In this document: positions 604-12,827 of the stretch, piece by piece
Position numbering within the stretch: position 1 is the first letter of the stretch
How the letters are laid out: the number at the start of each line of letters is the position of its first letter
Source of the DNA: Escherichia coli 042
GTDB lineage: Bacteria > Pseudomonadota > Gammaproteobacteria > Enterobacterales > Enterobacteriaceae
NCBI RefSeq assembly: GCF_000027125.1
Contig: NC_017626.1
Reading direction: 5' to 3' (one strand)
DNA: 64,000 bases
Translations under genes and position numbers: made by a program
The notes under the pieces: generated by a model
Databases searched by the model: none
What the model saw: only the letters and a program-made list of their open reading frames with translations
What the model was told of the DNA's origin: nothing

Positions 604-3600
604 ATGGGTAAAGGAAGCAGTAAGGGGCATACCCCGCGCGAAGCGAAGGACAACCTGAAATCCACGCAATTACTGAGTGTGATCGATGCCATCAGCGAAG
701 GGCCGATTGAAGGTCCGGTGGATGGATTAAAAAGCGTGCTGCTGAACAGTACACCGGTGCTGGACAGTGAGGGGAATACCAACATCTCCGGTGTCACGGT
801 GGTGTTCCGGGCAGGTGAGCAGGAGCAGACACCGCCGGAGGGATTTGAATCCTCCGGTTCCGAGACGGTGCTGGGTACGGAAGTGAAATACGACACGCCG
901 ATCACCCGGACCATCACGTCTGCAAACATCGACCGTCTGCGCTTTACCTTCGGTGTGCAGGCTCTGGTGGAAACCACCTCAAAGGGGGACCGGAATCCGT
1001 CGGAAGTCCGCCTGCTGGTTCAGATACAACGTAACGGTGGCTGGGTGACGGAAAAAGACATCACCATTAAGGGCAAAACCACCTCGCAGTATCTGGCCTC
1101 GGTGGTGGTGGGTAACCTGCCGCCGCGCCCGTTTAATATCCGGATGCGCAGAATGACGCCGGACAGCACCACAGACCAGCTGCAGAACAAAACGCTCTGG
1201 TCGTCATACACCGAAATCATCGATGTGAAACAGTGCTACCCGAACACGGCACTGGTCGGCGTGCAGGTGGATTCGGAGCAGTTCGGCAGCCAGCAGGTGA
1301 GCCGTAATTATCATCTGCGCGGGCGTATTCTGCAGGTGCCGTCGAATTATAACCCGCAGACGCGGCAATACAGCGGTATCTGGGACGGAACGTTTAAACC
1401 GGCATACAGCAACAACATGGCCTGGTGTCTGTGGGATATGCTGACCCATCCGCGCTACGGCATGGGGAAACGTCTTGGTGCGGCGGATGTGGATAAATGG
1501 GCGCTGTATGTCATCGGCCAGAATTGCGACCAGTCGGTGCCGGATGGCTTTGGTGGCACGGAGCCGCGTATTACCTGTAATGCGTACCTGACCACGCAGC
1601 GCAAGGCGTGGGATGTGCTCAGTGATTTCTGCTCGGCGATGCGCTGTATGCCGGTATGGAACGGGCAGACGCTGACGTTTGTGCAGGACCGGCCATCGGA
1701 TAAGGTGTGGACCTATAACCGCAGTAATGTGGTGATGCCGGATGATGGCGCGCCGTTCCGCTACAGCTTCAGCGCCCTGAAAGACCGCCATAATGCCGTT
1801 GAGGTGAACTGGATTGACCCGAACAACGGCTGGGAGACGGCGACAGAGCTTGTGGAGGATACGCAGGCCATTGCCCGTTACGGTCGTAACGTCACGAAGA
1901 TGGATGCTTTTGGCTGTACCAGCCGGGGGCAGGCACACCGCGCCGGGCTGTGGCTGATTAAAACAGAACTGCTGGAAACGCAGACCGTGGACTTCAGCGT
2001 GGGCGCAGAAGGGCTTCGCCATGTGCCGGGCGATGTCATTGAAATCTGTGATGATGACTATGCCGGTATCAGCACCGGCGGGCGCGTGCTGGCGGTAAAC
2101 AGCCAGACCCGGACGCTGACGCTCGACCGTGAAATCACGCTGCCATCCTCCGGCACCACGCTGATAAGCCTGGTTGACGGACAGGGGAATCCGGTCAGCG
2201 TGGAGGTCCAGTCCGTCACCGACGGCGTGAAGGTGAAAGTGAGCCGTGTTCCTGACGGCGTTGCCGAATACAGCGTGTGGGGGCTGAAGCTGCCGACGCT
2301 GCGCCAGCGCCTGTTCCGCTGCGTGAGTATCCGTGAAAACGATGACGGCACGTATGCCATCACCGCCGTGCAGCATGTACCGGAAAAAGAAGCCATCGTG
2401 GATAACGGGGCGCACTTTGACGGCGACCAGAGCGGCACGGTGAATGGTGTCACGCCGCCAGCGGTGCAGCACCTGACTGCCGAAGTCACCGCAGACAGCG
2501 GGGAGTATCAGGTACTGGCCCGCTGGGACACGCCGAAGGTGGTGAAGGGGGTGAGCTTTATGCTTCGCCTGACCGTGGCAGCGGATGACGGCAGTGAGCG
2601 GCTGGTCAGCACGGCCAGGACGACGGAAACCACATACCGCTTCACGCAACTGGCGCTGGGAAACTACAGGCTGACAGTCCGGGCGGCAAATGCCTGGGGG
2701 CAGCAGGGCGATCCGGCATCGGTATCGTTCCGGATTGCCGCACCGGCAGCGCCGTCGCGGATTGAGCTGACGCCGGGCTATTTTCAGATAACCGCCACGC
2801 CGTATCTTGCCGTTTATGATCCGACGGTACAGTTTGAGTTCTGGTTCTCAGAAAAGCGGATTGCGGATATCAGGCAGGTTGAAACCGCAGCCCGCTATCT
2901 TGGCTCGGCGCTGTACTGGATAGCTGCCAGTATCAATATCAAGCCGGGCCATGATTATTATTTTTATATCCGCAGTGTGAATACTGTTGGCAAATCGGCA
3001 TTCGTGGAGGCTGTCGGTCGGGCGAGCGATGATGCGGAAGGTTACCTGGATTTTTTCAAAGGAGAAATCGGGAAAACACATCTGGCCCAGGAGCTGTGGA
3101 CGCAGATTGATAACGGTCAGCTTGCGCCGGACCTGGCTGAAATCAGGACGTCCATTACGAATGTCAGCAATGAAATCACGCAGACCGTCAATAAAAAACT
3201 GGAAAATCAGAGTGCGGCAATCCAGCAGATACAGAAAGTTCAGGTTGATACAAATAATAACCTGAACAGCATGTGGGCCGTGAAACTGCAGCAGATGCAG
3301 GACGGACGCCTTTATATTGCGGGTATCGGTGCCGGTATTGAGAATACGCCAGCAGGAATGCAGAGTCAGGTGCTGCTGGCGGCAGACAGGATTGCGATGA
3401 TTAATCCTGCGAATGGCAACACAAAGCCGATGTTTGTTGGTCAGGGCGATCAGATATTTATGAATGAAGTGTTCCTGAAATATCTGACGGCTCCCACCAT
3501 TACCAGCGGCGGTAATCCTCCGGCATTTTCCCTGACACCGGACGGGCGGCTGACGGCGAAAAATGCCGATATCAGCGGTAACGTGAATGCGAACTCCGGG

Positions 3601-4083
3601 ACGCTCAACAACGTCACGATTAACGAGAACTGTCGGGTTCTGGGAAAATTGTCCGCGAACCAGATTGAAGGCGATCTCGTTAAAACAGTGGGCAAAGCTT
3701 TCCCCCGGGACTCCCGTGCACCGGAGCGGTGGCCATCAGGAACCATTACCGTCAGGGTTTATGACGATCAGCCGTTTGACCGGCAGATTGTTATTCCGGC
3801 GGTGGCATTCAGCGGCGCTAAACATGAGAAAGAGCATACTGATATTTACTCCTCATGCCGTCTGATAGTGCGGAAAAACGGTGCTGAAATTTATAACCGT
3901 ACCGCGCTGGATAATACGCTGATTTACAGTGGTGTTATTGATATGCCTGCCGGTCACGGTCACATGACACTGGAGTTTTCGGTGTCAGCATGGCTGGTAA
4001 ATAACTGGTATCCCACAGCAAGTATCAGCGATTTGCTGGTTGTGGTGATGAAGAAAGCCACTGCAGGCATCACGATTAGCTGA
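604..4083 (+). CDS. J: Host specificity protein J (central tail fibre / tip attachment protein)
   Basis: 1159 aa ORF; N-terminus [38 protein letters not shown] matches my recollection of lambda J; size and position before lom fit. SD-like gagg upstream of ATG. Confidence 0.95.
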
Positions 4084-4150: not shown

Positions 4151-4750
4151 ATGCGTAAATTATGTGCTGTTATTTTGTCCGCAGTAGTCTGGCAGGTCGC
4201 CGCTGCTACGCCAGCGAGTGCAGCAGAACATCAGTCCACGCTGAGCGCGGGGTATCTCCATGCCTCGACGAACGTTCCCGGTAGTGATGATCTGAACGGG
4301 ATTAACGTGAAATACCGTTATGAGTTTACGGACGCGCTGGGGCTGATTACGTCCTTCAGTTATGCCAATGCTGAGGATGAGCAAAAAACGCGCTACAGCG
4401 ATACCCGCTGGCATGAAGATTCCGTGCGTAACCGCTGGTTCAGCGTGATGGCGGGGCCGTCTGTACGCGTGAATGAATGGTTCAGCGCGTATGCGATGGT
4501 GGGTGTGGCTTACAGCCGTGTGTCGACTTTCTCCGGGGATTATCTCCGCGTAACTGACAACAAGGGGAAAACGCACGATGTGCTGACCGGAAGTGATGAC
4601 GGTCGCCACAGCAACACGTCTCTGGCGTGGGGGGCTGGCGTGCAGTTTAATCCGACCGAATCCGTGACCATTGACCTTGCTTATGAAGGTTCCGGTAGTG
4701 GCGACTGGCGAACGGATGCATTTATTGTTGGTATCGGATACCGTTTCTGA
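4151..4750 (+). CDS. lom: Lom/Ail/PagC-family outer membrane beta-barrel protein
   Basis: 199 aa, signal peptide ending ASA-AE, C-terminal GYRF beta-barrel signature, position immediately after J as in lambda. Confidence 0.9.
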   Translation: MRKLCAVILSAVVWQVAAATPASAAEHQSTLSAGYLHASTNVPGSDDLNGINVKYRYEFTDALGLITSFSYANAEDEQKTRYSDTRWHEDSVRNRWFSVMAGPSVRVNEWFSAYAMVGVAYSRVSTFSGDYLRVTDNKGKTHDVLTGSDDGRHSNTSLAWGAGVQFNPTESVTIDLAYEGSGSGDWRTDAFIVGIGYRF

Positions 4751-4901: not shown

Positions 4902-7900
4902 ATGACAGTAAAAATTTCTGGCGTGCTTAAAGATGGCACAGGAAAACCAGTACAGAACTGCACCATTGTGCTGAAGGCCAGACGAACCAGCAGCACGGTG
5001 GTGGTGAACACGGTGGCCTCTGAAAATCCGGATGAAGCCGGACGTTACAGCATGGATGTTGAGCATGGTCAGTACAGCGTCACCCTGCTGGTTGAAGGTT
5101 TTCCGCCTTCACATGCCGGGACCATTACCGTCTATGAAGGTTCCAGATCAGGTACGCTGAATGATTTTCTCGGTGCCATGACGGAGGATGATGTCCGACC
5201 GGAGGCACTGCGCCGCTTTGAGCAGATGGTGGAAGAGGTGTCACGTAACGCCTCCGCGGTTGCACAGAATACGGCAGCCGCGAAAAAATCAGCCAGCGAT
5301 GCCAGTGCATCAGCCAGCGAGGCGGCAACTCATGCAACCGATGCTGCAGCCTCAGCACGTGCCGCCAGCACGTCAGCCGGACAGGCCGCGTCGTCGGCTC
5401 AGTCAGCGTCTTCCAGCGCAGGAACGGCATCGACAAAGACCCGTGAAGCAGCAAAAAGTGCTGCTGCTGCAGAGTCATCAAAAAGCGCGGCAGCTACCAG
5501 CGCCAGTGCCGCGAAAACGTCAGAAACGAATGCCGCAGCATCACAAAAATCGGCAGCCACTTCTGCATCCACAGCGACCACGAAGGCGTCAGAAGCTGCC
5601 ACCTCGGCACGGGGTGCGGCGGCCTCAAAAGAGGCAGCGAAATCTTCAGAAACGAATGCATCATCAAGTGCCAGTAGTGCAGCTTCCTCGGCAACGGCGG
5701 CAGGAAATTCCGCGAAGGCGGCAAAAACGTCCGAGACGAACGCTAAGTCTTCTGAAACAGCAGCGGGACAGAGCGCCTCAGCTGCGGCAGGTTCAAAAAC
5801 AGCGGCTGCATTATCTGCCAGTGCCGCGTCAACAAGTGCCGGGCAGGCCTCAGCCAGTGCCACCGCCGCCGGAAAATCGGCAGAAAGCGCCGCATCATCC
5901 GCTTCAACAGCCACAACGAAGGCTGGCAAAGCCACTGAGCAAGCCACTGCAGCAGCGAGGTCTGCTTCTGCAGCAAAAACCTCTGAAACAAATGCAAAGA
6001 CTTCAGCAGACAATGCTGCTTCCTCTAAGGCGGCAGCCGCATCGTCAGCCAGTTCAGCGGCGTCATCGGCATCATCTGCGTCTGCTTCAAAAGATGAGGC
6101 GACCAGACAAGCGTCAGCAGCGAAAGGTAGTGCCACGACAGCAACAACGAAAGCATCAGAGGCGGCAGGCAGTGCGACGGCTGCATCTCAGAGCAAAGTT
6201 GCTGCTGAATCCGCGGCAACGCGCGCCGAGACAGCAGCAAAACGGGCAGAGGATATTGCATCCGCCGTGGCGCTGGAGGATGCGAGCACGACGAAAAAGG
6301 GGATAGTACAGCTCAGCAGTGCAACAAACAGCACCAGTGAAAAGCTGGCGGCAACGCCAAAGGCAGTTAAAACTGTTAAAGATAGTTCAGTTCAAAAAAC
6401 TGGCGACACAATGGGAGGGCAGTTAAAAATCAGCACGATAAATGCTCTTCGAATATTCAACCAAGCCTTTGGCCTTATTTTTAGGCGTTCCGAAGATCAT
6501 CTTCATCTTATTCCGACTAATGAAGGGGAGGGGGAAAATGGAGACATCGGTTCATTAAGACCATTCTCTATAAACTTAAGATCAGGGTTGGTGTCCATCG
6601 GTAATGGACTAAAAGTTGGTGGTAGTGTTACTGGTAATTTGACCGGAAACGCAGATACTGCGACCAAGATCAAGACAGCACGTAAGATTGGGGGCGTGGC
6701 ATTTGATGGATCGGCAGATATCAACTTGCCTGGAGTCAACGCTACCGGTAATCAAAACACTACAGGTAATGCTGCGACCGCCACGAAACTTCAGGCAGCC
6801 AGAACGATTAACGGTGTGTCATTTGATGGTAGTGCAAATATCACATTGACCCCTTCAAATATTGGGGCATTGGCATTAACTGGAGGGACTCTTTCAGGTG
6901 GTTTAACTGCTGCTGGTGAGGTTATTTCAAGGTCAGCAAATGGTCTGCGTATTGCCTATGGCAACTATGGATTCTTTATCCGAAATGATGGATCAAACAC
7001 ATATTTTATGTTGACAGATTCGGGTAACAGTCTTGGTACGCACAATAGCTTAAGGCCGTTTATAATTAGTAACCATACTGGCAATGTTACAATTGCAACT
7101 AAATTAAACGCGAGTGGTGGTATCACTGGATCTTTATCGGGTAATGCAAGCACAGCAACCAAATTGCAAACTGCAAGGACAATTAACGGCGTAAAATTTG
7201 ACGGCTCGGCAAATATTGAAGCGTTTCCGCCAGGTGTTCCGCTGCCGTGGCCATCAGATACACCACCTGCAGGTTATGCAATCATGCAGGGGCAGACGTT
7301 TGATAAGGCAGCATATCCGAAACTGGCTATTGCCTATCCTTCAGGTGTTATTCCAGATATGCGCGGCTGGACAATCAAGGGCAAACCCGCCAGTGGCCGG
7401 GCCGTATTGTCTCAGGAACAGGACGGCATTAAATCGCACACCCACAGCGCCAGCGCATCCAGTACGGATTTGGGGACGAAAAACACATCGTCGTTTGATT
7501 ACGGAACCAAATCCACGAATAACACCGGGGCGCATACCCATAGTATTAGCGGGACTGCAAATAGTGCCGGTGCGCACCAACACAAGAGTTCCGGTGCATT
7601 TGGTGGCACGAACACGAGCATTTTCCCTAATGGTTATACCGCGATTTCAAATCTAAGCGCGGGGATTATGAGCACAACAAGCGGTAGTGGCCTGACTCGT
7701 AATGCAGGGAAGACATCATCAGATGGTGCTCATACCCACTCGCTGTCCGGCACTGCTGCAAGCGCAGGCGCACATGCACATACTGTCGGTATTGGTGCTC
7801 ATACGCACTCCGTTGCGATTGGCTCACATGGACACACCATCACCGTTAACGCTGCTGGTAACGCGGAAAACACCGTCAAAAACATCGCATTTAACTATAT

Positions 7901-7916
7901 TGTGAGGCTTGCATAA
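4902..7916 (+). CDS. stf: Side tail fibre protein
   Basis: 1004 aa; N-terminus [22 protein letters not shown] and C-terminus ..[18 protein letters not shown] resemble lambda Stf from memory; long Ala/Ser/Thr-rich low-complexity shaft; three tandem ~38-aa repeats (TGNxxTATKxxTARxIxGVxFDGSAxI) at about 6600-7210; cluster of His-x-His motifs near the C-terminal tip. Confidence 0.92.
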
Positions 7917-8500
7917 TGGTATTCAGAATGAGTGAACAACCACGGACCATAACAATTTATAATCTGCTGGCCGGAACTAATGAATTTATTGGTGAAGGTG
8001 ATGCATATATTCCGCCTCATACAGGTCTGCCAGCAAACAGTACCGATATTGCACCGCCAGATATTCCGGCAGGCTTCGTGGCTGTTTTCAACAGTGATGA
8101 GGCATCGTGGCATCTCGTTGAAGATCATCGGGGTAAAACGGTTTATGACGTGGCTTCCGGCGACGCGTTATTTATTTCTGAACTCGGTCCGTTACCGGAA
8201 AATGTTACCTGGTTATCGCCGGAAGGGGAGTTTCAGAAGTGGAACGGCACAGCCTGGGTGAAGGATACGGAAGCAGAAAAACTGTTCCGGATCCGGGAGG
8301 CGGAAGAAACAAAAAACAACCTGATGCAGGTAGCCAGTGAGCATATTGCGCCGCTTCAGGATGCTGCAGATCTGGAAATTGCAACGGAGGAAGAAACCTC
8401 ATTGCTGGAAGCCTGGAAAAAGTATCGGGTGTTGCTGAACCGTGTTGATACATCAACTGCACCTGATATTGAGTGGCCTACGAACCCTGTCAGGGAGTAA
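7916..8500 (+). CDS. tfa: Tail fibre assembly protein (chaperone)
   Basis: 194 aa, start overlaps stf stop; sequence [54 protein letters not shown] matches recalled lambda Tfa almost residue for residue. Confidence 0.93.
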
Positions 8501-8550
8501 TCATTGGGATTATGCCGCAGCACGTCTTAAGCAAGAACGTGCTGCGGTTG
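8340..8550 (+). repeat. Direct repeat copy A (tfa 3-prime end plus downstream hairpin)
   Basis: About 210 bp, roughly 90 percent identical by eye to 9390..9600, including the post-stop sequence taatcattgggattatgccgcag. Confidence 0.8.
8513..8548. terminator. Hairpin between convergent tfa and methyltransferase genes (candidate bidirectional terminator)
   Basis: gccgcagcacgt / acgtgctgcgg arms (about 11-12 bp) around an 11-nt loop; T-run follows on the plus strand. Confidence 0.45.
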
Positions 8551-8554
8551 GATG

Positions 8555-9223
8555 CTATTTTTTCCCTGAAGCGGAAAACATTACTACAGTACCTTGAACC
8601 TTGGTTTTAACATTCTCGAAATGCTCTGAGAGTATATGTGTTAAGCCTTCTTCGGAATCTTTTGTGTTTGAAAAGATGCCTTTCTGATTGTAAATGCGCA
8701 TCAGTTTTTGACCGAAGCTATTGTGCACAACTCCATCGCCAAGAATTGTGGCTCCGTATAGAGTTCCATCGTCAGTTAAGGCCTGCGCCGCATTGCGTAT
8801 TACACAGCTTTTTGTAGATATATTTCCAGGCAGGCAGTGAAGAAGGTAAAACATGGAAATGGAATCAAATTGACCATGTAACGCCGCGGGATAAGGTTCA
8901 AAAACATCATGGCTAATTTTATGTTTAATTTTTGATTCCCCAGCCCTTGTAGATGCCGCGTTCAGGCTAGCTTCGTTCAAATCCATTAAAGATATCAGAC
9001 TACTCTCAGGTACGTGAGTAAGGTAAAACCCAGTTCCAACACCAATATCCAGATGGTTGTTACCTAAATGTTCCAGAAAGTGTGGAAGAAGGTGTTCCTT
9101 TGTAGGACATCCCCATGCAAGCCGATTTGATACTCCCAAAACCCACCAGTCATAAAGCTTTAGGGTAAGTGGTGTGTAAATTTTAGCCCCATCATCTGTG
9201 TTTTTTTTCATTAATTTCACCAT
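8555..9223 (-). CDS. Class I SAM-dependent methyltransferase (putative), prophage cargo gene
   Basis: 222 aa ORF. Motif I LDIGVGTG, acidic post-I ISLMDLN, motif II FDSISMFYLLHCLP, motif III LTDDGTLYGATIL in canonical order. Visibly AT-rich versus neighbours. Likely true start is the second Met (MKKNTDDG, about 9211) which has a GGTGA SD-like sequence upstream. Substrate unknown. Confidence 0.65.
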   Translation of the reverse strand: MVKLMKKNTDDGAKIYTPLTLKLYDWWVLGVSNRLAWGCPTKEHLLPHFLEHLGNNHLDIGVGTGFYLTHVPESSLISLMDLNEASLNAASTRAGESKIKHKISHDVFEPYPAALHGQFDSISMFYLLHCLPGNISTKSCVIRNAAQALTDDGTLYGATILGDGVVHNSFGQKLMRIYNQKGIFSNTKDSEEGLTHILSEHFENVKTKVQGTVVMFSASGKK

Positions 9224-9279
9224 GTTATAGTTTTATTTGTGAATTAAATCAATTATGGCGATGAATTACAAGGGGTTAA

Positions 9280-9549
9280 ATGCTGCCGCAGCATAGCGAT
9301 ATTGAAATAGCCTGGTATGCTTCGATACAGCAGGAGCCGAATGGCTGGAAGACCGTCACCACACAGTTCTACATCCAGGAATTCAGTGAGTATATTGCGC
9401 CACTGCAGGATGCTGTAGATCTGGAAATCGCAACGGAGGAAGAAAGATCGTTGCTGGAGGCATGGAATAAATATCGGGTATTGTTGAATCGTGTTGATAC
9501 ATCAACTGCACCTGATATTGAGTGGCCTGCAAATCCTGTCAGGGAGTAA
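9280..9549 (+). CDS. Truncated or divergent tail fibre assembly protein homolog (tfa-prime, 89 aa)
   Basis: C-terminal 52 aa nearly identical to Tfa ([51 protein letters not shown]); N-terminus unrelated and short; good SD aagggg 5 nt before ATG. Could be a functional mini-chaperone or a remnant. Confidence 0.5.
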
Positions 9550-9600
9550 TCATTGGGATTATGCCGCAGACACGTCGTATGCAGGAACGTGCTGCGGTTA
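9390..9600 (+). repeat. Direct repeat copy B (tfa-prime 3-prime end plus downstream hairpin)
   Basis: Partner of 8340..8550; hairpin arms are degenerate in this copy. Confidence 0.8.
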
Positions 9601-10135
9601 GTTTGTGAGCTTTCGATAGTGGTTGTTATTTTTGCCCTTATTTGTTCCGGAGGCCATGGTTCAATGGTCCGTCTGCCCCCTGTGGTGATGTCAGCAAAAT
9701 CAGCCACTGCGCGAACCACAATAGCCCGGGAAGATGCTGAAGATCACCAGGTAAAGCTGTCAGCGCAGAAACTGGAAGAACTGCTCGCATCAATGGTTAA
9801 GGATGAGGTTGATCGCAATGATGGGATTTATTGACGTCAGCGAGAGCAGAAGGAAGAACTGAATAACCTGAATGATTTACGCTCAATCAGAGCGATGATG
9901 ATTGGCAGTAATTAGCGGTCAATTTCGGTTTTTTTGGCTGTGCGCTCCCCGCCCAGCATTGCGCGTCAATTAGCCCCAAAAAAACGAAAAAGTTACAATC
10001 AAGTAAAAAATTCCTTCTGCAAAACTAAAAAAGATTTCAATAAAATCAGACAGTTAAAAGCATAAAAAAAGGTACAAAAAAAACATCTCAAAGTCTTGTT
10101 TTTTGCTTCAAATACAATTGGTTATTGTGTTTTTT

Positions 10136-10263
10136 GAAACCTACCAGTCTGGTACATGGATATCGATACCACCGCCAATTATAAGCTGGGCGGTGCACAG
10201 CAACACGATAGCGTACGCCTCGATCCGTGGGTGTTTATGTTCTCAGCAGGATATCGTTTTTAA
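10136..10263 (+). pseudogene. ompW: 3-prime fragment of ompW (last ~42 codons) at the prophage-chromosome junction
   Basis: In-frame translation ..WYMDIDTTANYKLGGAQQHDSVRLDPWVFMFSAGYRF-stop matches the OmpW C-terminus as recalled; an in-frame TGA lies just upstream (about 10133) and sequence 5-prime of it is phage-like and AT-rich; yciE follows as in K-12. Confidence 0.8.
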
Positions 10264-10322: not shown

Positions 10323-10829
10323 TTATTTCTTCGCTTCTACGCCATCAGTTTCAGAGCGAATTAAAAATTTCTCAGTTGTTTGCGGAATATGCTGAATCAG
10401 CCAGTCGGCCATTTCTTTTTCCTCATTTAAAATCGCTTCGATGGTTGGAATTGAAGCTGTATCACCGGCATTTTTTGCTGCTGCTAATAGTGAGGTGTAA
10501 CAGGCGATTTCAAATTGCTCGAAGACATATCCGCTAATAGAGCCTTTGACTATTTCATCAGAAGGGAATATACCACCGATTGACTGCCCAAGCGCAGCCA
10601 TTTTACTCATGGAATCTTTAATGACTGAACGTGAAATGTCATTACGATCAAGAATAGTTTCCAGTTGAACAATCTGGTTTTTGGTTTCACTAAGATGTTG
10701 TTCAATACGAGCGCGTAGTTCAGGATAATTATCTATACGACTAGCCATGGATTCAAGCATAGATTCGGCTTGCTTTTCCATTGCGTGGGCGTCACGTAAC
10801 CAGTCATGATAATGTTCAATACGATTCAT
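10323..10829 (-). CDS. yciE: YciE, ferritin-like stress protein (DUF892)
   Basis: 168 aa ORF; recognised sequence and K-12 synteny. Confidence 0.93.
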   Translation of the reverse strand: MNRIEHYHDWLRDAHAMEKQAESMLESMASRIDNYPELRARIEQHLSETKNQIVQLETILDRNDISRSVIKDSMSKMAALGQSIGGIFPSDEIVKGSISGYVFEQFEIACYTSLLAAAKNAGDTASIPTIEAILNEEKEMADWLIQHIPQTTEKFLIRSETDGVEAKK

Positions 10830-10874
10830 GAAAATGTCCTCTTTATAAAATGACTAAAAGTTAAAGTTCATATT

Positions 10875-11375
10875 TCAGGCTTTATTTTCGGCTTTCTTAT
10901 TTACGTTATTAAGTGCCAGATCAGTCAGTTTGATGTCGGTGGCCTTTTCTTCTTCCAGGGTTTCTTTCAGAAGCTTCGCTGCTTTACGATAACCTAATTG
11001 TTCAGCCAGCGTTGCTAAGGTCCCGTAACTGGCGATCTCATAGTGCTCGACCTTCTGTGCAGCGGCAATCAGTGCGGCATCACGCACTTCGTTTTTCTCG
11101 GTGCTTTCGATGACCTCATTAGCTTCATCAATTAGACCTTCCATTGCCACACATTTCATGCGCTTAATTTTCAGGTTCGATTCGGACTCCACAACTTGAT
11201 CAATACGTTCAATCTGTCCATGAGTTTCCTCGAGGTGCGCATGAAAAGCCTGACTTAATTTTTCGTTTGATGTTGCTCTTGCGAGTTTTGCCAGTGCCCG
11301 GGTTAATTGTTTTTCTGCGCTGTAGGTATCTGAAAGCAGGTGAATAAATACATCTTCAATGGTCTTCATATTCAT
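10875..11375 (-). CDS. yciF: YciF, ferritin-like stress protein (DUF892)
   Basis: ORF track gives 182 aa; K-12-like start MNMKTIEDVF gives 166 aa. Confidence 0.93.
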   Translation of the reverse strand: MNMKTIEDVFIHLLSDTYSAEKQLTRALAKLARATSNEKLSQAFHAHLEETHGQIERIDQVVESESNLKIKRMKCVAMEGLIDEANEVIESTEKNEVRDAALIAAAQKVEHYEIASYGTLATLAEQLGYRKAAKLLKETLEEEKATDIKLTDLALNNVNKKAENKA

Positions 11376-11460
11376 ATTTTTCTCCAGTGAAATCACTGCG
11401 AGCCATACGGCCCGCAGATGCAATTATCTTTATCAGCTGATATTAATAATTAACGGTGAA

Positions 11461-11640
11461 TCAGGATTTGCCTGATTTATTACCACCGCTTTGTTGACCG
11501 CCTTTTTTACCCGCTTCAGATGCGCGTTGCGGATCATTTTTAAAATTACCGCCGCTATGCTGACCGCCTTTACGGCCAGCGTCGGATGCCTTTTCACGGT
11601 CTTCGGCGAAATTTCCTGAACCACCACGATGTTCGGCCAT
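11461..11640 (-). CDS. yciG: YciG, KGG-repeat stress protein
   Basis: 59 aa from MAEHRGGSGNF.. with GGGAGA SD upstream; the ORF track's longer 78 aa frame extends upstream. Confidence 0.85.
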   Translation of the reverse strand: MAEHRGGSGNFAEDREKASDAGRKGGQHSGGNFKNDPQRASEAGKKGGQQSGGNKSGKS

Positions 11641-11984
11641 GTTATTTCTCCCGTTGCGTTGCATTGTTTCATTAATATGAGTGTTGTGTGTCGACACTCA
11701 TTAAAATTAGTCGCTAATGAAAATTAGTCAAATTAAGCGCAACGAGAAGAAAGAGGGAAAATATATTATGAGGAACATTCTGGATATATTAACAATTGCC
11801 TGAGGAATAAGTGACTTAGAGAAAATTATTTATTTTACTGGTGTTATGTTGCGGGATTAATTTGTTTGATTATATTACTGTTGGGCGGAAAAAAGACGTA
11901 AGTTGACGTTCGACAGGGGTAAGCGAAACGGTAAAAAGATAAATAATAAATGAATTTAGGATTTTTCCAGCTTCGTTAAAGAAA

Positions 11985-12020: not shown

Positions 12021-12827
12021 TTAACTGCGCGTCGCCGCTTTCATCGGTTGTACAAAAGCTTTCAGTGCCGCCAGCATTTTCTCTGGCTCATTAATATGTT
12101 GCTCGATGATTTTAACGATGGCCGAACCAGAAATCGCGCCCGCAGCTCCTGCATCAATCGCTGCTTTTACCTGATCCGGGGCGGAAATACCAAAGCCCTG
12201 CAATGGAGGCGCAGCATTGTATTCTTTCAGCTTCGTGACCAGATGATTGAGGGGTAACGCGGCGCGGTTTTCTGCGCCGGTCACGCCCGCACGTGACAAT
12301 AAATAGGTGTATCCACGACCGTAGGAGGCTATCTGGCGCAGCAAATCATCGTCGGCATTCGGCGGGCAAATAAAGATAGGTGCGACATTATGACGCAACG
12401 CGGCCTGGCGGAAGGGAGCGGACTCTTCCACTGGCACATCGGCAACCAGCACCGAATCGACGCCGACTTTCTCGCACTGGGCATAAAACTCATCAATGCC
12501 TTTGTTAAACACCAGGTTGGCATACATCAAAAGGCCGATGGGAATGGTCGGGTGCTTCTGGCGAATCAGTGCCAGCATCTCAAAGCACTGTGCCGGGGTC
12601 ACACCTGCCGCAAAGGCACGCAGTGTGGCGTTTTGAATCGTCGGGCCATCCGCCAGTGGGTCGGAGAAGGGGATACCTAACTCCAGCGCGTCAGCACCGG
12701 CTTCAATTAGCGTGTCGATAATTTTCAGCGACTGCTCAATGCCCGGATCACCGAGCGTGACGAAAGGAACGAATGCGCCTTCTTTGCGCTCCTTCAACTG
12801 GGCAAACAGAGATTCGTAGCGTTCCAT
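12021..12827 (-). CDS. trpA: Tryptophan synthase alpha chain
   Basis: 268 aa; sequence [29 protein letters not shown] recognised; operon context. Confidence 0.97.

Follow-up and report, generated by a model that had tools for sequence, protein, structure and literature searches.

An intact ybcY-family methyltransferase gene in the tail fiber region of an Escherichia coli 042 prophage: a widespread moron with a probable small-molecule substrate

Introduction

Morons are independently transcribed cargo genes carried in phage genomes, with lom and bor of phage λ as examples. One prophage gene of this kind, ybcY, lies in the cryptic prophage DLP12 of Escherichia coli K-12 as part of the array tfaD-ybcY-tfaX (b0561-b0563), and for decades the K-12 annotation has included the gene, its position after a tfa and its tfaX partner. 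The K-12 copy is a frameshifted, 655-nt pseudogene, the true 5' end of tfaD is missing, and DLP12 itself is a remnant. In this work, we analyzed a stretch of 64,000 nucleotides of E. coli 042 (contig NC_017626.1; hereafter the window), in which an intact open reading frame (ORF) of the same family, predicted to encode a class I S-adenosylmethionine (SAM)-dependent methyltransferase, follows the tail fiber assembly gene tfa of a lambda-like prophage and is flanked by two direct repeats.

Several described systems bear on this locus. In phage λ, tfa is followed by the same hairpin as here and then by unrelated sequence and ea47, with no methyltransferase gene at that place. Tfa proteins are chaperones constituted by a variable N-terminal fiber-binding domain and a conserved C-terminal oligomerization domain (PMC9608196). 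Among enzymes, DovB, a product of the dov cluster, a near-identical counterpart of the ver cluster, O-methylates the hydroxyl of an alpha-pyrone, and AurB, CtvB and AstB are its homologs (PMC12312803). The e14 prophage of K-12 encodes YmfD, a likewise prophage-borne protein of 221 aa annotated as a putative SAM-dependent methyltransferase; its gene adjoins ymfE, lit and intE, and no tail fiber genes were found in the stretch examined.

Results and discussion

The gene is an intact, widespread ybcY

Positions 8062-9526 of the window are 97% nucleotide-identical to tfaD-ybcY-tfaX of strain MG1655 (K-12), with which the locus shares gene order, strands, spacing and a promoter element. In contrast to DLP12, the methyltransferase ORF of the window is intact, lies behind full-length stf and tfa genes, and belongs to a prophage inserted in ompW (Table 1). 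The gene is an intact ybcY, an already known and routinely annotated moron of lambda-like E. coli prophages: RefSeq annotates its product as a class I SAM-dependent methyltransferase (WP_000239881.1), PHROG 2132, a family labeled 'unknown function', is matched over the full length (E=7.9e-157), and one phage record carries the label 'YbcY' for the gene. In the literature, we found WP_000239881.1 unmentioned and ybcY named only incidentally.

At a coverage of at least 80%, the gene and its spacer (8555-9279) were detected in 3797 of the 5426 complete E. coli genomes (~70%), with up to four copies per genome; all matches were at least 95% identical, and 3291 of them at least 99%. Moreover, 15 sequenced E. 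coli phages carry the gene, and the cluster of the 222-aa protein comprises 6589 member sequences. By these figures, few cargo genes of E. coli prophages are as widespread as ybcY, and the 'orphan' status assigned to it in a first-pass annotation, made from the sequence alone, is overstated for a gene annotated in thousands of RefSeq genomes. In phages such as 2G7b, ev243 and PhiR26_1, the protein is 99-100% identical and its gene is also found after tail fiber genes, on the opposite strand and ahead of a tfaX-like ORF as here and in DLP12, followed by an alpha/beta hydrolase gene and ompT, and by an integrase gene in 2G7b; no material difference separates these PHROG 2132 phages from the present locus, although the upstream tail fiber module and the downstream cargo vary by phage. 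A resemblance to YmfD of e14 had also been suggested at first; pairwise BLASTP gave E=14, with no meaningful alignment and no detectable similarity, and kinship with YmfD was rejected, the true K-12 counterpart being the ybcY pseudogene of DLP12.

The remaining descriptive features of the first-pass annotation were reproduced: a single, reverse-oriented, AT-rich gene occupying the cargo slot after tfa. Its GC content is 0.408 (0.356 at third codon positions, GC3), compared with 0.485 (GC3 0.454) for tfa, 0.521 (GC3 0.436) for stf and 0.511 for the whole window, so its base composition deviates from that of the flanking phage genes. With a candidate promoter, a flanking hairpin, a deviant composition and its absence from λ at this junction, the gene fits the classical moron pattern known from lom and bor, both of which encode envelope proteins; YbcY differs from these in being a predicted cytoplasmic enzyme transcribed opposite to the late genes.

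Sequence motifs and the predicted fold identify a class I methyltransferase

The Pfam families Methyltransf_12/23/25/11/31 match residues 52-182. Motif I reads LDIGVGTG at residues 58-65 (GVGTG at 61-65), and G61, G63 and G65 are at least 90% conserved in an alignment of 95 homologs; in the same family alignment, Y24, D81, H129, G157 and D189 are invariant, and Y16, D25, W37, C39, H57, C130, P132, G133 and K138 are near-invariant. The AlphaFold2 model (mean predicted local distance difference test, pLDDT, 93.6; predicted template modeling score, pTM, 0.89) displays the class I seven-stranded sheet ending in a beta-6/beta-7 hairpin. D81 ends the strand formed by residues 76-81, as the acidic residue at the end of beta-2, and would contact the SAM ribose. 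Taken together, these features identify the predicted product as a class I SAM-dependent methyltransferase, as had been proposed. Searches of PDB sequences with the protein and with the 95-sequence profile returned no close solved relative, the best match being NodS (E=8e-7), limited to the SAM-binding core, and NCBIfam gave sub-threshold matches only (CpaM and RquA at 17 bits, against cutoffs of 175-180).

Polymorphism points to purifying selection on ybcY

The ratio of nonsynonymous to synonymous polymorphism (pN/pS) of the methyltransferase gene is 0.165 over 26 distinct alleles, a value based on few substitutions among closely related alleles, and its segregating sites are distributed 10/4/24 by codon position; tfa behaves alike (pN/pS 0.174, 18 alleles). 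All 76 full-length gapless copies are intact, in a set biased toward intact copies, as is the ORF in 80 of 80 mapped IMG/VR loci. These sequence comparisons indicate that the methyltransferase is kept functional by purifying selection.

Alternatively, ybcY could be inert baggage, that is, a decaying hitchhiker spread through its linkage to the recombination-prone tail fiber region. This would agree with the frameshifted K-12 copy, with the truncated forms found elsewhere (445 sequences in a 161-aa cluster, and a 194-aa protein of strain S88), with the H-NS association in K-12, which suggests silencing, and with the appearance of the neighboring tfaX as a decaying remnant. However, a pN/pS equal to that of the functional tfa gene with an excess of third-position changes, an identity of at least 95% throughout the 3797 genomes, the size of the 222-aa cluster, the intactness of the copies in the biased set above and the retention of catalytic and SAM-binding residues all argue against it, and we regard this explanation as unlikely. 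For tfaX itself, pN/pS lies at 0.45-0.68, the segregating sites are evenly distributed among the three codon positions, and internal stops in the 5' part occur in 3 of 83 copies; tfaX is probably a decaying remnant under relaxed selection, which these values only suggest because few sites are variable.

Structural neighbors suggest a small-molecule substrate

In Foldseek searches, the structural neighbors of the model were overwhelmingly small-molecule methyltransferases. The AFDB entry 'Methyltransferase verB' matched at 35% identity (TMq 0.89, E=4.4e-25), and a vrtF-named AFDB entry is 41% identical. The AFDB family is large, including unnamed proteins of Klebsiella, Pantoea, Pseudomonas, Vibrio, Legionella and Streptomyces as well as of many fungi (35-47% identity), and many of the unnamed fungal homologs lie at 40-47%. 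The functional placement further included juvenile-hormone-acid O-methyltransferase, phosphoethanolamine and phosphatidylethanolamine N-methyltransferases, DhpI, BelI/CysG, PsmD, Coq5, UbiG, the C-methyltransferase domains of polyketide synthases, and the detoxifying enzymes TmtA and Rv0560c. Because of this fold, the homologs among small-molecule enzymes and the DovB-type relatives, we consider YbcY a putative cytoplasmic small-molecule methyltransferase, most likely an O-methyltransferase; a scan of its sequence found no hydrophobic segment. Small-molecule methylation had been one of the options listed in the first-pass annotation.

The fungal alpha-pyrone O-methyltransferases (VerB/DovB, AurB, CtvB and AstB) and the VrtF-like enzymes share fold and family with YbcY. 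Their genes, however, are clustered with that of a polyketide synthase, and the enzymes act on a dedicated intermediate of the pathway, whereas the prophage gene stands alone on a mobile element with no biosynthetic cluster: the neighbors at the locus are tail fiber genes and ompW, with no polyketide synthase cluster, and the bacterial homologs stand alone as well. A homolog search seeded with an Aspergillus member and aimed at named enzymes (AurB, CtvB) returned uncharacterized proteins only.

Other classes of substrate were weighed against this assignment. A nucleic-acid methyltransferase, either an orphan DNA methylase with an anti-restriction or epigenetic role or a modifier of RNA or tRNA, appears highly improbable: a motif search found neither (D/N/S)PP(Y/F/W) nor PCQ in the protein, no Pfam DNA-methylase family was matched, and no NCBIfam model came near its cutoff. 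In the model, the methyltransferase fold takes up all of the 218-222 aa, so that a target-recognition domain would find no space; small-molecule enzymes are the best neighbors by structure as well as by sequence; stand-alone homologs are common in fungi and soil bacteria; and the gene has no partner nuclease. The role in defense or anti-defense that had also been entertained found no support in PADLOC, which returned nothing significant for the protein (mad2 only, E=0.0033, 14 bits) and nothing for the neighboring genes.

A protein methyltransferase modifying a phage protein, such as the tail fiber, or a host protein would be compatible with the class I fold and with the location of the gene directly beside stf and tfa. 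Conversely, transcription of the gene runs counter to the late operon, the gene is found behind at least three different upstream tail fiber/tfa arrangements, and 14 of 80 loci have no tfa homology upstream of the hairpin. Furthermore, homologs of 53-88% identity reside on plasmids and chromosomes, in surroundings free of tail genes, and no protein methyltransferase was among the top structural matches. We therefore find a protein substrate quite doubtful.

A candidate promoter and a probable start at Met5

A pattern search of the 64-kb window returned a single match (0 expected), TTGATT-17-TATAAC, at 9252-9224 on the minus strand. An identical element in the divergent ybcY/tfaX spacer of K-12 was described by Shimada et al. 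as the ybcY promoter, bound in vitro by the RpoD holoenzyme and accompanied by an H-NS site (PMC3946193). A second candidate, TTAACC-16-CATAAT at 9279-9252, is consensus-like, and a transcript from it would keep a GGTGA ribosome-binding site. Since the -10 hexamer of the first element directly abuts the annotated ATG at 9223, and since positions 1-218 of the PHROG 2132 profile align with residues 5-222 and most homologs are 218 aa long, the true start is probably Met5 (ATG at 9211-9209), giving a protein of 218 aa.

The flanking repeats are most simply read as recombination scars

As originally observed, the gene is flanked by direct repeats, each containing a tfa 3' end and the hairpin that follows its stop codon. 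The pair consists of 8324-8520 versus 9373-9569 (197 nt, 89%) and 8521-8549 versus 9571-9599 (29 nt, 90%), two segments split by a 1-nt indel; in a pairwise alignment, strong similarity begins at 8335/9384, so each copy measures ~215 nt, with ~90% identity overall. A repeat search found these as the sole two repeat families in 4.5 kb, far beyond chance. Each copy extends from the final ~54 codons of a tfa frame through its stop codon to the hairpin, the coding part of the left copy being the last ~165 nt of tfa. PHROG matches to the tfa C-terminus repeat the pattern of a conserved C-terminal part, and the bases just after the right copy resemble the λ post-tfa sequence (GGTTAGTT).

Two Rfam matches fall within the tfa and tfaX frames and cover most of each repeat. 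Both are to RF02111 ('IS009', a candidate sRNA), one at 8259-8457 (+) with 225 bits, against a gathering score of 117, and the other at 9303-9506 (+) with 112.5 bits. RF02111 probably reflects the conserved tfa coding sequence of cryptic prophages rather than an RNA gene.

Junctions were mapped in 80 IMG/VR loci, all from E. coli, taken as best-scoring matches with proteins 99-100% identical; this set is biased toward intact copies and suits junction mapping, not diversity. The block shared with the window starts at 7245-7967, with the same tfa, in 28 loci, at 8369-8403, within the conserved C-terminal coding part of tfa, in 38, and at 8509-8515, with the hairpin only, in 14. These 14 loci retain hairpin A, so the hairpin travels with the methyltransferase gene. 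The block ends at 9504-9527 (38 loci), 9621 (9), 9897 (8), the contig end (22), or 9265, 9331 and 10265 (one each). From these positions, a constant core at 8515-9504 was delimited in all but two of the 80 loci, including the hairpin, the methyltransferase gene, the spacer and the 5' 225 nt of tfaX, and the spacing between methyltransferase gene and tfaX is 56 bp wherever tfaX was detected (79 of 80 loci).

On the simplest reading, the repeats are recombination scars, that is, the 3' end of the resident tfa and that of tfaX. The repeats had first been regarded as brackets of the cargo gene, and one could envisage functional ends of a mobile cassette, or a programmed, RecA-mediated gain and loss of cargo; indeed, two ~215-nt repeats of 90% identity lying 1049-1050 bp apart could delete exactly one unit and leave a lambda-like tfa-hairpin arrangement. 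Nevertheless, the ends of the shared block differ between loci and fall anywhere along the conserved coding part of tfa, 14 of the 80 loci lack the left tfa homology altogether, no recombinase is associated, and the repeats simply encode a conserved protein domain. A cassette with defined ends was rejected on these variable junctions, and we consider either form of functional repeat improbable, favoring instead a by-product of recombination in conserved tfa sequence. The locus thereby offers a clean example of the conserved tfa 3' end serving as a recombination joint for swaps of tail fibers and cargo.

A proposed role in the lysogen

The explanation we judge probable as a whole combines an intact moron of the YbcY family, a small-molecule methyltransferase active in the lysogen, and repeats generated by recombination. 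The AT-rich predicted promoter, an H-NS target in K-12, would drive the gene in the lysogen, counter to the late operon, while hairpin A, common to the tfa end, would act as a terminator or insulator separating the tfa and methyltransferase transcription units. The soluble cytoplasmic enzyme would move a methyl group from SAM onto a small molecule. The acceptor is most likely an oxygen, in a hydroxyl or enol group, of a metabolite or xenobiotic that could be aromatic, pyrone-like or of another kind. The catalytic base may be the invariant His129, located just after strand beta-4, assisted by Tyr24, Asp25, Trp37 and Cys39 of the N-terminal lid. The lysogen, rather than the virion, would benefit, through the detoxification or modification of a metabolite. 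The conserved 3' part of tfa encodes the oligomerization domain of the chaperone and is common to many phages. Homologous recombination within it would have placed the hairpin-methyltransferase-spacer-tfaX unit behind varied tail fiber modules, leaving a second, decaying tfa 3' end in the form of tfaX.

A number of observations weigh against this explanation. The nearest characterized enzymes are only ~35% identical and belong to fungal polyketide clusters without a counterpart here, and the choice of O-methylation over N-, C- or S-methylation is guessed from the named relatives that lie nearest. No partner gene is shared around the chromosomal homologs in Salmonella, Erwinia, Enterobacter, Yersinia, Citrobacter, Pseudomonas and Janthinobacterium, and consequently there is no guilt-by-association clue to the substrate, although this absence agrees with a stand-alone enzyme whose substrate is generally available or comes from the environment. 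Regarding selection, the low pN/pS comes from few substitutions, K-12 tolerates a ybcY pseudogene and truncated variants occur elsewhere; the 80 mapped loci share the bias already stated. Transcription of the present allele is deduced from its K-12 counterpart, and the contact between -10 hexamer and ATG makes both start site and start codon uncertain. Hairpin A lies between the convergent stop codons of tfa (8498-8500) and the methyltransferase gene (8555-8557), 6 nt past the latter, and is not a canonical intrinsic terminator on either strand: a consensus terminator scan did not call it, its plus-strand U-run is 8 nt off the stem, and no U-tract is adjacent on the minus strand.

The T-run that follows hairpin A on the plus strand (8549-8566) is the complement of the C-terminal Lys-Lys codons of the methyltransferase gene, and thus the two convergent genes share the region of the hairpin and the T-run.

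As a genome feature, the locus changes little, the gene being known and routinely named by RefSeq. Identification of the substrate, on the other hand, would give a function to thousands of annotated genes and might reveal a lysogenic-conversion trait based on small-molecule methylation.

Homologs occur on several kinds of mobile elements

The family comprises ~1300 clusters at 50% identity. In Enterobacterales, homologs of 56-69% identity occur as single genes at various sites of the chromosome and often have a higher AT content than their surroundings. Salmonella homologs (79-88% identity) are located among insertion sequence (IS) elements, ccdAB and a plasmid integrase gene, or next to perC and an autotransporter gene, contexts indicating that the gene moves on several kinds of mobile elements and not on phages only. 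A homolog 65-67% identical over residues 8-222 is present on 603 Klebsiella plasmid records, lying directly beside rmpADC, peg-344 and iroN on hypervirulence plasmids (phvKP2_1, stretch L103 6995-7648; stretch L092 6001-6654). The pK2044 representative, BAH65943.1, beside rmpA, resembles ybcY in being AT-rich, stand-alone, divergent from its neighbors and carried on a mobile element, and differs from it in lying on a plasmid, away from any phage genes. Published work presents the Klebsiella gene only as a marker associated with liver abscess or hypermucoviscosity (PMC5126061, PMC9846069, PMC9372168).

More distant relatives include a 32% identical protein of the vap island of Rhodococcus equi (pVAPA2288, stretch L105 7103-7717), whose gene lies beside virR and is divergent from a LysR regulator gene, a major facilitator superfamily (MFS) transporter gene and vapH, and a 53% identical protein of the Erwinia amylovora plasmid pEA29, whose gene adjoins a choline transporter gene (stretch L106 4001-4660); pEA29 is the ubiquitous plasmid of the fire-blight agent. 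It is conceivable, although rather unlikely in our estimation, that the YbcY-family enzymes act as a mobile fitness or virulence factor common to their carriers, methylating one particular small molecule derived from the host, the microbiota or the environment and thereby detoxifying it or altering a signal; this would explain independent recruitment by E. coli prophages (~70% of genomes), Klebsiella plasmids, the R. equi vap island and pEA29. The relatives beside key virulence regulators on the Klebsiella and R. equi plasmids serve as markers only, and of all the findings only this repeated occurrence on mobile elements linked to virulence could prove interesting.

A Pseudomonas member belongs to a same-strand run with genes for a DUF892 (YciE/YciF-like) protein, a Mn catalase and a DUF6388 protein (stretches L107-L109, 2925-5681), which looks like a stress-gene set. 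The prophage of the window also abuts yciE and yciF, by coincidence of its insertion site in ompW.

Layout of the prophage right arm

ORFs and profile matches assign the left part of the window to the right arm of a lambda-like prophage (Table 1). The tfa gene is ~92% identical to orf-194 of λ. The prophage is integrated in ompW, of which only a 3' fragment is left, and beyond it (10323-11697 and 12021-12827) lie the chromosomal genes yciE, yciF and yciG and the trp operon (trpA-E). Strain SW4848, from which the ompW coordinates were transferred, is 100% identical to positions 8500-9600 of the window, and its RefSeq annotation labels the stretch equivalent to 9646-9915 as a DUF4376 pseudogene. 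With this third tail fiber-related remnant between tfaX and the prophage end, the right arm amounts to a pile of tail fiber and tfa fragments.

Table 1. Positions of the features of the prophage right arm in the 64,000-nt window of E. coli 042
Feature	Position	Strand	Description
gpJ	604-4083		Prophage gene order J-lom-stf-tfa
lom	4151-4750		Between gpJ and stf
Side tail fiber gene stf	4902-7916		1004 aa
tfa	7916-8500	+	Full-length 194-aa tail fiber assembly gene of the resident prophage; phrog_105 'tail fiber assembly', E=2.7e-100
Left direct repeat	8335-8549		tfa C-terminal-domain codons, stop codon, hairpin A
Hairpin A	8514-8548		Plus strand -29.3 kcal/mol (z -3.5); minus strand -26 (z -4.1)
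YbcY-family class I SAM-dependent methyltransferase (predicted)	8555-9223	-	ORF of 222 aa; single gene directly after tfa
Divergent spacer with candidate promoter	9224-9279		56 bp, GC 0.268
tfaX-like ORF	9280-9549	+	89 aa; phrog_2341, E=4e-61
Right direct repeat	9384-9599		tfaX 3' end, stop codon, hairpin B
Hairpin B	9563-9598		Weaker, -25 kcal/mol (z -1.9)
Tail fiber gene remnant with internal stop	9646-9915	+	phrog_7703, E=8e-15; phrog_1141 'tail fiber protein', E=2e-10
ompW 3' remnant	~10138-10263	+	Right prophage end; coordinates transferred from the RefSeq annotation of strain SW4848

The tfaX-like ORF occupies the same position as tfaX of K-12. Its N-terminal ~35-38 aa are unrelated to Tfa and the remainder is the conserved Tfa C-terminal domain, residues ~29-87 matching the C-terminal parts of Tfa profiles. 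Tracing the N-terminal segment through its phage matches did not reveal its origin: the 38 non-Tfa residues recur, at 75% and 51% identity, in phages without the methyltransferase, the Ayreon match (3501-3596 in stretch L104) lies just downstream of a side tail fiber gene, and the Klebsiella phage matches are present in unannotated records (Kp4882-3 and relatives). A weaker, additional idea is that the tfaX product, a Tfa oligomerization domain without the fiber-binding domain, might poison the tail fiber assembly of superinfecting phages.

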